DNA from: PVC group bacterium
GTDB lineage: Bacteria > GCA-001730085 > JADFSZ01
Assembly (NCBI GenBank): GCA_022560555.1
Contig: JADFSZ010000086.1
Span: forward strand, 1-7,355
Length of the DNA stretch: 7,355 bases
Direction: 5' to 3'
Shown: piece by piece, positions 1-7,355 of the stretch
Layout: every line of letters begins with the position of its first letter
How positions within the stretch are numbered: the stretch's first letter is position 1
Notes under the pieces: model-generated
Told to the model about the DNA's origin: nothing
Databases searched by the model: none
What the model saw: only the letters and a program-made list of their open reading frames with translations
Program-made: the position numbers and the translations under genes

Positions 1-171
1 GGGGTGTGCTCGATCGGATGGGCCAAGTGCAGTGATGATCATCCCTGTCCTCTGCATCCTCACTTTAAGAAGTTGCGAGAGGCCATTCGTTCTTTTCTTG
101 AATCCGTTGATATTGCCGTTTTTGCCGAGGTGGAAAAGTTTAAGAAGAAGAAACAAAAAACACTGAAATAG
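1..171 (+). CDS. 3' end (56 codons) of an unidentified protein: Cys/His-rich segment followed by a Lys-rich tail. The 5' part lies outside the window.
   Basis: Frame 1 is open from position 1 to TAG at 169-171 (GVCSIGWAKCSDDHPCPLHPHFKKLREAIRSFLESVDIAVFAEVEKFKKKKQKTLK*). Three Cys and three His within about 20 residues hint at a metal or Fe-S site. No family can be assigned from this fragment. It is on the same strand as the next gene and 53 nt upstream of it. Confidence 0.45.
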   Translation, partial: GVCSIGWAKCSDDHPCPLHPHFKKLREAIRSFLESVDIAVFAEVEKFKKKKQKTLK

Positions 172-2000: not shown

Positions 2001-5000
2001 TTTGAATCAATCCAAGATGTCGAAAATCCTCTTGATTATTATCCCAATAGAGATTGGGAAAAAATCTATCGTGATCAATACAAGTATGACAGTACTTTTT
2101 CGTGGGTTTGCTCTCCGAATGATACCCATGCGTGTCGCTGTATGGCCTATGTTAGGAATGGGATTGTCTTTCGATTGGGCTCTGAATATAACTACGAAAA
2201 ATATGCAGATCTTTATGGCAACAAAGCCACAGTAAACTGGAACCCACGTCAGTGCTCCAAAGGCTACACGTTTCATCGCCTTCTCTATGGGCCGTATCGA
2301 TTGAAATATCCGCTGATCCGCCGAGGCTGGCGCCAATGGGCGGATGATGGGTTTCCCGATCTTAATCAAAAAAACAAAGTGAAATATAAATTTGATTCCC
2401 GCGGAACAGATACACTTGAAAAAGTTTCTTGGGATGAGGCCAATACATATATTGCCAACGCCATGATTGCCATCGCGAAACGTTACAGTGGAGACAAAGG
2501 GAAAAAGAAACTAAAAGCTCAAGGATATCCCGAAGAAATGCTCAATGCCATGCATGGGGCGGGCACTCGAACATTCAAAATGCGGGGCGGCATGGGGCTT
2601 TTGGGTGTCTTTGGAAAATATGGAATGTATCGACTGAGTAATACGATGGCCCTGCTGGATACATATATTCGGGGGGTCGATGAAAAAAAAGCCAAGGGGG
2701 CACGTGCTTGGTCCAACTATACATGGCATGGGGATCAGGCCCCGGGACATCCGTGGGTGCATGGTCTTCAGAACGCGGACTGTGATTTCAATGACTTGAG
2801 ATCCAGCAAGCTCATCATTCAAGATGGAAAGAATCTGGTTGAAAATAAAATGACAGACTCCCATTGGTTTATCGAATGTATGGAACGTGGTGCAAAACTT
2901 GTCACGATCTCCCCGGAATACAGTCCTCCATCCACAAAATCAGATTATTGGATCCCCATTCGGCCGGGAACCGATGCGGCGCTTTTTCTGGGGATTACAC
3001 GCATCATGTTTGATCAAAATTGGTATGATCGGGATTTTGTTTTGAAATATACAGACTTTCCTTTACTTATCCGCTTGGATAATCTTCGTCGCCTCAGAGC
3101 CAATGATATATTTCCAGATTATCAACTGGGGCTTTCTTCGGATAGTCCCAGTTTTAAATATCAAGGGCTGAAAAAAGAGCAATATGAAAAATTGGGGGAT
3201 TTTGTTGTTTGGGATTCTCTCAAACAAAAACCTGTTCCGTTAACCCGCGATGATATGGGTCAAAGAATGACAAAGAAAAATATTAACCCTATTTTAGAAG
3301 GGACTTTTACCGTTAAAACAGTTGATGGAAAAGAGGTCGAGGTGATGACCTTGTTTTCCCTCTATCAAGGACATCTCAAAGACTATGATCTTGACAGCGT
3401 GGTTGAGATGACGAGCGCGCCCAAAGATCTTATTTTTCAATTGGCTAAAGATCTTGCGACCATTAAGCCTGCGGCCATCCATCAAGGAGAAGGAATCAAT
3501 CATTATTTTCATGCCACCGAAATGAATCGTGCGGCATATCTTCCCATGATGTTAACCGGAAATATCGGGAAACCCGGGGCCGGATGTTTTGGGTGGGCCG
3601 GAAACTATAAAGCCGCGCTTTTTCAAGGATCTCCTTGGACAGGCCCCGGGTTCAAAGGATGGGTGGCTGAAAATCCGTTTCACCCTAACCTTGATCCAAA
3701 AGCCTCGGGACGTGATGTGAAGACCAAGGCATATTTTAAGGATGAAGAACCGGCGTATTGGAATCATGGAGATCGGCCGCTCATTGTCGATACCCCCAAG
3801 AAAGGACGCAAAGTATTTACCGGTGATACGCATATGCCGACGCCGACAAAAATAATTATGACAAATAATGTCAACCTGATTAATAACGCGAAACATGCCT
3901 ACGAAATGATTAAAAATGTCAATCCCAATGTGGAGATGATTGTGACTATCGATATTCAGATGACAGCCACAATCGAATACTCGGATATTGCATTGCCAGC
4001 CAATAGCTGGCTGGAGTTTGAAGGACTCGAAGTGACCGCGTCCTGCTCAAATCCCTTTTTGCAGATATGGGAGGGAGGCATCCCCCCGATTTTTGATTCC
4101 AGGGACGACCTCGTCATCTTGGCTAAAGTTGCAGAAAAATTGGGACAAATCACAGGCGATAAGCGGTTCTATGACTATTGGAAATTTGCACTCGAAAACA
4201 ATCGGGAGATTTACATTCAGCGACTCTTGGATTCAAGCACAACGACAACAGGATATCAACTTGAGGACATCATGAATGGGAAGTACGGCCCTCCGGGCGG
4301 AGCTTTGATGCTTTTCAGGACCTATCCGCGGATTCCTTTTTGGGAGCAAATCCATGACAATGAGCCCTTTCATACGGACACCGGACGGATGCATGCCTAT
4401 ACGGATATTCCTGAAGCCATTGAGTACGGAGAAAATTTTGTTGTGCATCGCGAAGGGCCTGAAGCAACGCCGTATCTTCCGAATGTTATTGTGAGTTCCA
4501 ATCCTTATATTCGTCCGGAAGATTATGGCATTCCGAAGGATGCCGAACATTGGGATCATCGAACAATAAGAAACATTCGTATGTCTTGGGAAGACGTTAA
4601 AAAAACGAAAAACTTCCTTTGGGAAAAAGGATTCCAGTTTTACTGTATGACTCCGAAAAGCCGGCACCGTGTTCATTCCATGTGGAGTAATGTAGATTGG
4701 CATCAGATCTGGGATTCGAATTTTGGCGATCCCTATCGTATGGATAAACGAACTCCGGGAGTTGGTGAACAGCAGCTTCATCTCAACCCTCAGGCAGCCA
4801 AAGACCTGAATATTAAAGACGGGGACTATGTTTATGTGGATGCGAATCCCGCGGACCGACCCTACGTAGGAGCTTCTCCTGATGATCCGTTTTATAAAGT
4901 GGCTCGACTGATGCTTCGTGTAAAATTTAATTCTGCCTATCCATACCATGTCGCTATGATGAAACACGGAACATACATCGCGACTGAAAAATCTGTGAAG

Positions 5001-5351
5001 GCCCATGAAACAAGAAAAGATAAACGTGCTTTATCTGAGGGTGGAATGTATCAGGCGAATTTCCGCTATGGATCCCAGCAAAGTGTGACGCGCAACTGGC
5101 ATATGCCCATGCATCAGACGGATACTCTTTTTCACAAGTCAAAAGTTTTTATGTCCTTTCTGTTTGGCGGGGAAGCTGATAATCACGCGGTCAATACGGT
5201 TCCCAAAGAAACATTGGTTCGAATCACAAAGGCTGAAGACGGTGGGCTTGGGGGAAAAGGTGTGTGGGCCCCCGCGAAAACCGGATATACACCGGCCAAT
5301 GAAAATGACGTGATGAAAAAATATTTAATTGGCGGTTTTATACAAACCTAA
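1911..5351 (+). CDS. nxrA: Tat-exported molybdopterin (Mo-bisPGD) oxidoreductase catalytic subunit, periplasmic nitrite oxidoreductase alpha-like (NxrA/NarG family, type II DMSO reductase)
   Basis: 1146 aa from ATG 1911 (in frame with track ORF 1896..5351), TAA stop at 5349-5351. The N-terminus MGITRRTFLKISGATGMGLFLA carries a consensus twin-arginine motif. An N-terminal FS0-type cluster motif C-x3-D-x3-C ... C lies at 2109-2255. The segment WHGDQAPGHPW...LIIQDGKNLVENKMTDSHWFIECMERGAKLVTISPEYSPPSTKSDYWIPIRPGTDAALFLG aligns by eye with the E. coli NarG region around the Mo-ligand Asp222 (..ADLPP..IIAWGSNVPQTRTPDAHFF..GTKTVAVTPDY..LWLAPKQGTDAAMALA). That places a candidate Mo-ligand Asp at 2733-2735. 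The length of about 1150 aa and the Tat signal fit the Nitrospira/anammox-type NxrA rather than the roughly 900-980-aa Pcr/Clr/Ser/Ebd alpha subunits. Substrate specificity cannot be proven from sequence. Confidence 0.85.
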   Translation: MGITRRTFLKISGATGMGLFLASRQLSLYAFESIQDVENPLDYYPNRDWEKIYRDQYKYDSTFSWVCSPNDTHACRCMAYVRNGIVFRLGSEYNYEKYADLYGNKATVNWNPRQCSKGYTFHRLLYGPYRLKYPLIRRGWRQWADDGFPDLNQKNKVKYKFDSRGTDTLEKVSWDEANTYIANAMIAIAKRYSGDKGKKKLKAQGYPEEMLNAMHGAGTRTFKMRGGMGLLGVFGKYGMYRLSNTMALLDTYIRGVDEKKAKGARAWSNYTWHGDQAPGHPWVHGLQNADCDFNDLRSSKLIIQDGKNLVENKMTDSHWFIECMERGAKLVTISPEYSPPSTKSDYWIPIRPGTDAALFLGITRIMFDQNWYDRDFVLKYTDFPLLIRLDNLRRLRANDIFPDYQLGLSSDSPSFKYQGLKKEQYEKLGDFVVWDSLKQKPVPLTRDDMGQRMTKKNINPILEGTFTVKTVDGKEVEVMTLFSLYQGHLKDYDLDSVVEMTSAPKDLIFQLAKDLATIKPAAIHQGEGINHYFHATEMNRAAYLPMMLTGNIGKPGAGCFGWAGNYKAALFQGSPWTGPGFKGWVAENPFHPNLDPKASGRDVKTKAYFKDEEPAYWNHGDRPLIVDTPKKGRKVFTGDTHMPTPTKIIMTNNVNLINNAKHAYEMIKNVNPNVEMIVTIDIQMTATIEYSDIALPANSWLEFEGLEVTASCSNPFLQIWEGGIPPIFDSRDDLVILAKVAEKLGQITGDKRFYDYWKFALENNREIYIQRLLDSSTTTTGYQLEDIMNGKYGPPGGALMLFRTYPRIPFWEQIHDNEPFHTDTGRMHAYTDIPEAIEYGENFVVHREGPEATPYLPNVIVSSNPYIRPEDYGIPKDAEHWDHRTIRNIRMSWEDVKKTKNFLWEKGFQFYCMTPKSRHRVHSMWSNVDWHQIWDSNFGDPYRMDKRTPGVGEQQLHLNPQAAKDLNIKDGDYVYVDANPADRPYVGASPDDPFYKVARLMLRVKFNSAYPYHVAMMKHGTYIATEKSVKAHETRKDKRALSEGGMYQANFRYGSQQSVTRNWHMPMHQTDTLFHKSKVFMSFLFGGEADNHAVNTVPKETLVRITKAEDGGLGGKGVWAPAKTGYTPANENDVMKKYLIGGFIQT

Positions 5352-5365: not shown

Positions 5366-5659
5366 ATGGTTAAAAAAGACATTGAGCCCGATGATCCCAT
5401 GGAGATGGTAGGGGTGGAGCTTCCCGGACAAACCGAAGAACAGCTTAGGGATATGGTTCTTTGTTTTACAGAAGAATTTGTTCGGAATGGGTGGGATGAA
5501 AATAGGATTTTGTTTGTCTTTCGTAATCCTATGTATTATGGACCTTATATGGCATGGAAACAAAAAGGAACCCAGTATGTGCGCTCTGCCATTCATGAAG
5601 CGATGCGCATGTGGCGTCCCCATCATCGGCCGGGAAAGAGCCCGCGAGGGATATCATGA
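5366..5659 (+). CDS. Small hypothetical protein (97 aa), no family recognised; candidate NXR-associated accessory protein
   Basis: The ORF has a good SD, a 14-nt spacer after nxrA, a TGA stop at 5657-5659, and nxrA-like Arg codon use (mostly CGN). It has an acidic N-terminus (DIEPDDPMEM), an aromatic core (GWDENRILFVFRNPMYYGPYMAWKQKG) and a basic Pro-rich tail (RMWRPHHRPGKSPRGIS). It has no signal peptide, no TM segment and a single Cys. Confidence 0.6.
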   Translation: MVKKDIEPDDPMEMVGVELPGQTEEQLRDMVLCFTEEFVRNGWDENRILFVFRNPMYYGPYMAWKQKGTQYVRSAIHEAMRMWRPHHRPGKSPRGIS

Positions 5660-5759: not shown

Positions 5760-6851
5760 ATGATGATTGATAAATTAAAACCGTTAGTAATCGGGGACAT
5801 AGAGGTAAAGATCCCAATTGTTCAAGGGGGTATGGGCGTTAGGGTGTCTTTGGCTTCATTGGCAAGCGCTGTAGCCGATTATGGTGGGGCAGGAACTATC
5901 TCGAGCGTAGGTCTTGGTTTTGGCAGCGAAGACCATGAAAGACATTTTGTTAAGGCCTCAAACGAGGGTCTTGAAAAAGAAATTGATAAGGCGAAGGCAT
6001 TAACAAAGGGAGTGATAGGCGTCAATATCATGGTGGCCTTGAGTAATTTCGAAGAACTGGTTCGCACTACAGCACGCCGGAAAGCTGACTATATTGCCGC
6101 TGGTGCCGGGTTGCCGTTAAAATTGCCGGAATATGTTGAGGGCAGCTCAATAAAATTGATACCGATTGTTTCATCTGCAAGAGCGGCGGACATAATAATG
6201 AGGACTTGGAAGAAACGCTATAATCGACTTCCTGATGCTATTATTGTTGAAGGTCCGTTGGCCGGAGGACATTTGGGGTTTAAATTTGAAGAGGTTGAAT
6301 CGAAAAGGGAAAATGTTCTTGAGGATTTGTTTGTGGATGTTTTGAAGCGGGTTCGTCAATACGAAAAAGATTTTAATGTAAATATCCCTGTTATTGCGGC
6401 GGGAGGGGTATTTGACGGAAAGGATGCAGCCAAGTATTTTCGATTGGGGGCTAGGGGGGTGCAGCTGGGCAGTCGTTTTGTTGTAACCCATGAATGCTCT
6501 GTTGCCCATGAATTTAAAGAACTGTATCTAAAGGCACGAGAAGAAGATATCGTTATTATAAAAAGCCCTGTGGGTATGCCGGGGAGAGTTATCAGAACTA
6601 AGTTTGTTGATAGAGTCATGTCCGGAGAAAGGGTGCCGGTCAAATGTCTTTATCGTTGTCTTAAGACTTGTGTTCCTAAGACAACCCCTTATTGCATTGC
6701 CAAGGCATTGTATGCGGCTGCGGAGGGAGACATTGATAATGCTGTTGTTTTTGCCGGAAGTAATGTCTCAAGGATCACGAAAATTGTATCCGTCAAAGAG
6801 TTAATGGATGAGATTGTGGAAGATGCGATTAAAGAGTTAGCCATAACATAA
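5760..6851 (+). CDS. FMN-dependent oxidoreductase of the nitronate monooxygenase / 2-nitropropane dioxygenase-like / enoyl-ACP reductase II (FabK) family
   Basis: 363 aa, TAA stop at 6849-6851. Family hallmarks read directly: IPIVQGGMG (N-terminal FMN/TIM-barrel motif), GVNIM, IIVEGPLAGGHLG (the EAGGH-type catalytic His motif), IPVIAAGGVFDGKDAA, GARGVQLGSRFV. From memory, the stretch FVVTHECSVAHEFKELYLKAREEDIVII parallels S. pneumoniae FabK FVVAKESNAHPNYKEKILKARDIDTTI. No signal peptide, so it is predicted cytoplasmic. It also has an extra C-terminal Cys cluster, C-x3-C-x3-C-x7-C. Confidence 0.85.
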   Translation: MMIDKLKPLVIGDIEVKIPIVQGGMGVRVSLASLASAVADYGGAGTISSVGLGFGSEDHERHFVKASNEGLEKEIDKAKALTKGVIGVNIMVALSNFEELVRTTARRKADYIAAGAGLPLKLPEYVEGSSIKLIPIVSSARAADIIMRTWKKRYNRLPDAIIVEGPLAGGHLGFKFEEVESKRENVLEDLFVDVLKRVRQYEKDFNVNIPVIAAGGVFDGKDAAKYFRLGARGVQLGSRFVVTHECSVAHEFKELYLKAREEDIVIIKSPVGMPGRVIRTKFVDRVMSGERVPVKCLYRCLKTCVPKTTPYCIAKALYAAAEGDIDNAVVFAGSNVSRITKIVSVKELMDEIVEDAIKELAIT

Positions 6852-6927: not shown

Positions 6928-7290
6928 ATGAGTCAGGTCTATAACTGGCAGATCAATCGTAATATGGAATATCCTCACGAAGAGCATCATCCGGATCGAC
7001 AGTTTGCGTTTGTATTTAATTTGAATCGTTGTATCGGATGTCAGACATGCACCATGGCCTGCAAATCGACGTGGACGTTTTCTAAAGGTCAGGAATATAT
7101 GTGGTGGAACAATGTGGAAACAAAGCCTTACGGGGGATATCCCCAGTTTTGGGATGTAAAACTTTTAAAAATGCTTGATGAGGCCAACCCGAATGAACAA
7201 GTTTGGAACGGAAAAACTTTTGAAGGCAAAACCATCTTTGAAGCCACCAAGAAGAATATTTCCAAAGAGTCCCAAAGAGTGATGGGGTAG
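6928..7290 (+). CDS. nxrB: Fe-S beta subunit of nitrite oxidoreductase/nitrate reductase type (NxrB/NarH-like). The N-terminal 120 codons end at an in-frame TAG, so this is a possible pseudogene, sequencing error or read-through site.
   Basis: MSQVYNWQINRNMEYPHEEHHPDRQFAFVFNLNRCIGCQTCTMACKSTWTFSKGQEYMWWNNVETKPYGGYPQFW closely matches, from memory, the N-termini of Nitrospira and Kuenenia NxrB (..VYNWQLGR.M.YP.EE..P..QFA.VFN.NRC..CQTC.MA.KSTW.F.KGQE.MWWNNVETKPYGG.PQ.W). It includes the first ferredoxin-type C-x2-C-x2-C-x3-C motif. Full-length homologs are about 430 aa, and here the frame stops at TAG 7288-7290. Confidence 0.8.
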   Translation: MSQVYNWQINRNMEYPHEEHHPDRQFAFVFNLNRCIGCQTCTMACKSTWTFSKGQEYMWWNNVETKPYGGYPQFWDVKLLKMLDEANPNEQVWNGKTFEGKTIFEATKKNISKESQRVMG

Positions 7291-7355
7291 ATTCCCACAG
7301 ATGAAGAATGGCGAATTCCGACAATCAATGAAGATAATGCCGTGGGTCCAAAAGG
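7291..7355 (+). other. nxrB: Same-frame continuation of NxrB-like coding sequence downstream of the TAG; runs off the window
   Basis: The codons directly after TAG read IPTDEEWRIPTINEDNAVGPK with no stop up to the window edge. This resembles the (G-Y)-I-P-x-D-x-E-W-R-x-P-N-x-G-E-D-T-A segment I recall in NxrB homologs. Homology therefore crosses the stop codon without a frameshift. Confidence 0.65.

Follow-up and report, generated by a model that had tools for sequence, protein, structure and literature searches.

The question raised by this locus is whether a TAG codon that interrupts an nxrB-like gene belongs to the organism or to the assembly. The window, i.e., the whole stretch of DNA that was analyzed, is itself an entire MAG contig (7,355 bp), the end of which is 66 nt away from the TAG. 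An NxrB-like frame is opened on the forward strand by the ATG at 6928, and its product of 120 amino acid residues ends with ...SQRVMG at the TAG (7288-7290). Past the TAG, the same frame reads IPTDEEWRIPTINEDNAVGPK up to the window edge (22 codons). When the sequence was read again, it agreed with the first-pass annotation in that the TAG is in frame with this ATG and that the frame continues beyond it. This product carries the accession MCH7505033.1 and the annotation 'hypothetical protein IID04_05330 [PVC group bacterium]'.

The NxrB-like frame, its conserved tyrosine and its neighbors

The identity of the gene, which had been proposed as the N-terminus of NxrB, was upheld by matches to a known structure and to models of beta subunits. 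The NxrB of Kuenenia (PDB 7b04_A) was matched by the window product with E=1e-49 (residues 1-138), and residues 23-78 were matched by Fer4 and TIGR03478. The product matches the models for Fe-S beta subunits in the type II DMSO reductase family. The N-terminal CxxCxxCxxxC motif is present, and its four cysteines (C35, C38, C41, and C45) are invariant columns in the alignment of the relatives. Only the first of the Fe-S motifs is visible in the window, which ends 22 codons beyond the TAG; the later Cys motifs are found in the 99.6%-identical scaffold L011 (ENA ERZ23499143, ZHOU22-1_SAMN16252661 scaffold_9192), the gene order of which is the same as in the window. The features of the window are listed in Table 1.

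Table 1. Positions of the genes, the in-frame TAG and the anomalous tip in the 7,355-bp window.
Feature	Position	Strand	Remarks
Weakly Rrf2/IscR-like ORF, 3' end, terminated by TAG 169-171	4..171	+	
Fusion of two cytochrome c domains and an EB_dh (gamma-subunit-like haem b) domain, 555 aa	222..1889	+	
NxrA-like molybdopterin catalytic subunit, TAT signal, 1,151 aa	1896..5351	+	
Conserved 97-aa protein without family assignment	5366..5659	+	Also between nxrA and nxrB in relatives
NMO/FabK-like FMN oxidoreductase, 363 aa, between nxrA and nxrB	5760..6851	+	
NxrB-like Fe-S (beta) subunit, N-terminal 120 codons	6928..7287	+	Motif C35-x2-C38-x2-C41-x3-C45
In-frame TAG at the invariant Tyr position	7288..7290	+	Homologous codon TAT in six relatives
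Anomalous contig tip, 8 transversions relative to L011	7290..7355	+	7290, 7291, 7315, 7322, 7323, 7327, 7348, 7350

The codon replaced by the TAG was then placed in alignments with the relatives. In the 7b04_A alignment, the TAG stands opposite the Y of AVGYIPEDKEWR / AVGYIPEDKEWRSPN, the corresponding Kuenenia segment being GYIPEDKEWR. Tyr occupies this position in all 123 full-length relatives, and among the 264 sequences spanning the site (drawn from 351 relatives that contain the N-terminus), 262 carry Tyr and 2 carry Phe. At the DNA level, the codon is TAT in each of the six relatives L011, L012, L013, L009, L010, and L002. The claim that the TAG sits at a conserved Tyr codon, one substitution away from TAT, was therefore confirmed by the counts of 262 Tyr in 264 relatives and by the Kuenenia alignment on Y. 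The closest relatives are mostly uncultured Omnitrophota/PVC MAGs and do not come from known nitrite oxidizers.

Apart from the TAG, the Nxr-like locus is intact, as is shown by its NxrA-like gene. Alongside the NxrB-type beta subunit, it encodes a molybdopterin alpha subunit with a TAT signal and a haem gamma subunit, and the gene neighbors fit a periplasmic Nxr-like locus. The cytochrome c/EB_dh fusion is also present in L003 and L004 (572 aa), and its parts are called as separate genes in L002. The slot between nxrA and nxrB appears variable among the relatives. The two window genes in this slot (5760-6851 and 5366-5659) correspond to L011 1781-3266, the inter-subunit genes of L012 (compare 3549-4358) encode a 90-aa protein and a VIT1-like protein, and an 86-aa protein is found in L001.

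Two peculiarities of the L011 scaffold were observed within its nxrA. A scaffold gap of 100 N (1326-1425, within 1271-1480) is flanked by a duplicated 55-nt overlap, with window 5011-5065 aligning to both sides of it; given this duplication, the gap is spurious, and the pattern is typical of an assembly-graph break at k=55. In addition, L011 493-1266 (minus strand), equivalent to window 4233-5006 (minus strand), was called as a gene. This 257-aa antisense ORF in nxrA is almost certainly a spurious call, made because the scaffold gap interrupts nxrA there.

The contig tip compared with L011

Up to position 7289, the two contigs are nearly identical. Between positions 3741 and 7289, 15 differences were found in 3,549 nt (12 transitions and 3 transversions), of which 10 are synonymous, 4 are non-synonymous, and 1 is intergenic, and the 360 nt of nxrB before the TAG do not differ at a single base. 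From 7290 to 7355, the final 66 nt, 8 mismatches were found, with no transitions and 8 transversions. The first of them is the G of the TAG itself (7290). They affect six codons, two of which are hit twice, and all six changes alter the protein (Y>stop, L>I, F>I, N>T, Y>N, and T>P). According to these counts, the density of mismatches jumps at the tip (Poisson p=7e-10), transitions give way to transversions (Fisher p=3e-4), and synonymous changes give way to non-synonymous ones (p=0.01).

The residues encoded by the tip were also compared with those of 265 homologs, and three conserved positions were found to hold residues that occur in 0-2 of these homologs. The T sits at a column with N in 260/265 homologs, the N sits at a column dominated by Y/F/H (N in 1/265), and the I sits at a column in which I occurs in none of the 265. 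At the T>P codon, Pro is the commonest residue of the family (84/265 homologs), and the last two mismatches, which give this Pro, may represent real variation rather than error.

The window TAG was judged to be an artefact of a low-quality contig tip, i.e., a sequencing or assembly error, with a probability of roughly 0.78. This reading is favored because the density, type, and coding effect of the mismatches shift abruptly exactly at the TAG, and because the TAG is near the contig end and the 99.6%-identical L011 reads GGG TAT CTT and has an intact nxrB of 412 aa. The TAG would then be foreign to the organism's gene and would open a series of wrong bases that extends through the final 66 nt. 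Behind the tip would be a handful of bases of low quality, probably from a read with a degraded 3' end, and the cause would be a base-calling error rather than a real variant. The true codon would be TAT (Tyr), and the true gene would encode an NxrB-like protein of ∼412 aa with all Fe-S motifs, as in L011. Single-channel errors in Illumina chemistry produce transversions only, most of them changes to A; provided that the reads are from Illumina, the spectrum of the tip would fit such errors.

Judged by its sequence, the tip resembles neither a real allele nor a paralog that has diverged, and it does not look like a pseudogene in decay. The last of these was rejected, given that the 360 nt upstream are the same as in L011 and that two other TAG-bearing contigs (L001 and L014, described below) carry no further lesions after the TAG. 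Adenine mutagenesis of the tip in the style of a diversity-generating retroelement was also rejected, as bases other than adenine were changed too, whichever strand is considered.

Given that nxr loci are often multi-copy, the last 66 nt might instead have come from a second, decayed nxrB copy or from a co-occurring divergent strain, joined to the contig where the two diverge. Such a join would account for a contig that ends just past the divergence point and for the Pro at the last changed codon, which is a normal residue of the family, and a loss of nxrB homology was seen in L003 and L004 (another lineage) ∼five codons upstream of the same site, near the contig end. It was nevertheless considered very unlikely: a paralog or strain diverged by 12% should give mostly transitions and synonymous changes, but 0/8 and 0/6 were seen, respectively. 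Moreover, the tip sequence was found in no other of 5.8 billion proteins, and no evidence of a second copy was obtained.

The break in L003 was located at 10370-10515 (L004 alike), where nxrB homology stops after ...VGPEG and is followed by unrelated sequence for the ∼145 nt before the contig end; a chimera, the boundary of a repeat, or the junction of a mobile element might account for it.

The first-pass annotation had left three explanations for the TAG. An error of base calling or assembly is favored by the mismatches of the tip and by the TAT of L011; a nonsense mutation in a redundant paralog and read-through were not supported for the window. MCH7505033.1 most likely represents the beginning of an ordinary NxrB-like gene spoiled by an unreliable contig tip, and it should not be taken as a pseudogene, a recoding event, or a loss of Nxr function. 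More generally, errors can cluster densely in the final few dozen bases of a metagenome contig and be mistaken for interesting biology.

The same TAT-to-TAG change in two other contigs

The top database match of the product, P0001, likewise ends at residue 120. Its contig, L001 (ENA ERZ27284375, k119_193482, 1,937 bp), is 83% identical to the window in protein and 76% in DNA. At the same codon (1479-1481), L001 reads GGG TAG TTA, and 152 intact NxrB codons with the later Fe-S motifs follow. The TAG is the sole deviation of L001 across 152 conserved columns, and its nearest relatives, which are 89% identical, have TAT. A chimeric breakpoint at this TAG was rejected, the identity to three relatives being even along the gene. 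A third TAG was found in L014, a soil metagenome contig (SRR2071949, k127_150008, 1,002 bp) from a subclade that differs from that of the window. It reads GGT TAG TTG at the same codon (614-616), followed by 128 intact codons; its nearest relatives (90-95% protein identity) have Tyr, and the codon in L015 is TAT. No other stops, frameshifts, or deviations at conserved columns were found after the TAG in the 152 codons of L001 or the 128 codons of L014.

The lineages that bear the TAG are Omnitrophota/PVC-like and a soil Binatota-like clade, and they come from separate datasets. Three independent cases match one of the ∼180 single-base routes to a stop in the gene. This threefold recurrence at one base is not random, even allowing for the bias of the search toward fragments of this size. 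All three TAGs are T>G changes located 3-4 nt after GG (GGGGTAT twice and CGGTTAT once), and they are placed either on short contigs (1,937 and 1,002 bp) or at the tip of the 7,355-bp contig. Because the identical change is found in two independent contigs, site-specific causes retain a small probability.

The recurrence bears on the reading of the window TAG as an artefact in two ways. Against this reading, the TAGs of L001 and L014 lie mid-contig in independent assemblies with no anomalies nearby, and independent random errors would not strike the same base three times. Errors of Illumina sequencing can, however, be systematic: consecutive miscalls arise from sequence-specific start points in one read direction and break assemblies (Nakamura et al., 2011; PMC3141275), and systematic errors occur at ∼1 per 1,000 bp, are replicable across experiments, and have T>G with the miscalled T directly after GG as their signature (Meacham et al., 2011; PMC3295828). 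A technical cause of the recurrence is plausible, with one read direction able to dominate the consensus on short contigs and at tips. For the time being, the change in L001 and L014 was ascribed to a T-to-G miscall near GG that depends on its context, is replicable, and enters the consensus only where coverage is low. The fit of the published motif to the three TAGs is imperfect, the GG being offset from the miscalled T (GG-N-T-A-T), unlike the published GGT motif. As for other triggers of error, GGC is absent from the 10 nt that precede the site on the coding strand, and a search for inverted repeats of ≥8 nt gave none.

A genuine recurrent TAT-to-TAG mutation, arising from a mutational hotspot or present as a loss-of-function polymorphism among strains, would inactivate NxrB in some cells and would have been captured in the consensus of three assemblies. 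The same substitution in three independent datasets and lineages is what such an allele would produce, L001 and L014 are clean except for the TAG, and T>G (A:T to C:G) belongs to a known class of biological mutation, e.g., misincorporation of 8-oxo-dGTP. Nevertheless, this was regarded as quite unlikely. One of ∼180 single-base routes to a stop would have to recur, and we know of no mechanism that targets this one base. In the window, the TAG is bundled with seven other abnormal changes at the contig end, directly after 360 nt that are identical to L011, and TAT is found in every close relative.

If the TAG were translated, for instance as pyrrolysine or, with the help of a suppressor or near-cognate tRNA, as Tyr, full-length NxrB would still be made. 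In all three cases the stop is TAG and the residue is the invariant Tyr, and in L001 and L014 the downstream frame is intact and conserved, as would be expected if it were translated. However, no clade conserves the TAG: of 264 relatives, 262 carry Tyr and 2 carry Phe. L011, which is 99.6% identical, reads TAT, and the relatives of L014 with 90-95% amino acid identity have Tyr. Site-specific recoding was accordingly held to be the most improbable of the explanations. A global reassignment of TAG had already been thought unlikely, and this was substantiated: no in-frame TAG was found elsewhere in the 2,290 codons of the five window reading frames, as against 97 Tyr codons (77 TAT and 20 TAC). 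The only other TAG of the window (169-171) could be read through harmlessly. As had been stated, reading through it adds 17 codons and ends with a TGA beside the next start (GTGATG, 222-227); no evidence was found that it is read through.

Elements that could support translation of the TAG were searched for as well. A tRNA scan of the window, L001, and L011 found none, and an Rfam scan gave no match. The RNA structure 3' of the TAG was unremarkable (z-scores of -1.45 and +0.50) and similar to that of relatives with TAT, and no PYLIS-like or read-through-stimulating RNA structure was found downstream of the TAG. When 185,579 GTDB species-representative genomes and the JGI metagenome contigs were scanned at the DNA level with the degenerate pattern GGN TAG NTN CCN NNN GAY GAR GAR TGG, no TAG-bearing nxrB was found; the four matches to the pattern were attributed to chance, none of them being in nxrB. 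Nothing on in-frame stops in nxrB was found in the literature.

A biological origin of the recurrent TAG, as either a strong natural T-to-G mutational hotspot or a site-specific read-through (e.g., as Tyr) that yields a working enzyme, was considered unlikely; it would mean that three or more uncultured lineages have an amber codon in place of an otherwise invariant Tyr. If the change in L001 and L014 is technical, it offers a clear example of a replicable miscall by which false stops arise and genes are split in public protein catalogues. A real change would mean that amber codons recurrently replace an invariant residue in a core respiratory enzyme, which would be a surprising hotspot or case of site-specific read-through in bacteria.

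Several other relatives with a broken nxrB were inspected. P0077 and P0097 are apparently frameshifted at this site and come from noisy long-read assemblies, and they have no bearing on the TAG; in L002, which encodes P0077, the error is in an upstream homopolymer and the codon at the site is TAT. P0120, in which homology is lost near the contig end, also has no bearing. In P0307 (JGI 3300056388, a 914-bp contig with the gene at 327-539), a 70-aa NxrB fragment stops within the contig, exactly at the other invariant Gly-Tyr (KPYGG/Y, Tyr71, the slash marking the end of the fragment). The next ORF (586-912) lies in another frame than the fragment, as seen at the level of protein and ORF, which suggests an insertion in the Tyr71 codon, and GGN-TAT contexts may be error-prone. 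P0122 and P0330 end in translated adapters, namely EIGRASCRERV (Illumina adapter) and LSLIHISEP (Nextera adapter), and read-level artefacts therefore persist in the public protein collection.

Comparison with known systems

The window TAG resembles pyrrolysine (UAG) recoding and suppression by tRNA-Tyr(CUA) (supF) in that it is in frame and the downstream frame is kept, and it resembles amber suppression in that it stands at a Tyr position, one base from TAT. Known cases of recoding have a TAG that orthologs share and a genome that encodes pylTSBCD or a CUA tRNA. Here, in contrast, the TAG is present in single contigs only, all close relatives have TAT, and the machinery is unseen in the 7.4 kb of genome that the window represents.

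The systematic miscalls of Illumina sequencing are similar in the run of mismatches from a defined start to the contig end, in the T>G change near GG that recurs at the homologous position in independent datasets, and in the confinement of this change to short contigs or a contig tip. The case differs from them in that the T lies 3-4 nt after GG and has neither a GGC in the preceding 10 nt of the coding strand nor an inverted repeat of ≥8 nt.

When the gene itself is compared with the NxrB of Kuenenia stuttgartiensis (PDB 7B04 chain A) and the beta subunits of the periplasmic NXR type, the differences are that the window copy appears truncated by the TAG and that an NMO/FabK-like gene lies between nxrA and nxrB. 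The N-terminal 138 residues align, the first Cys motif is common to both, and the segment G-Y-[I/L]-P-x-D-x-E-W-R-x-P-N is shared by the window frame and Kuenenia NxrB. The neighboring Mo subunit with a TAT signal and the EB_dh-type gamma-like subunit are likewise as in periplasmic NXR-type systems.
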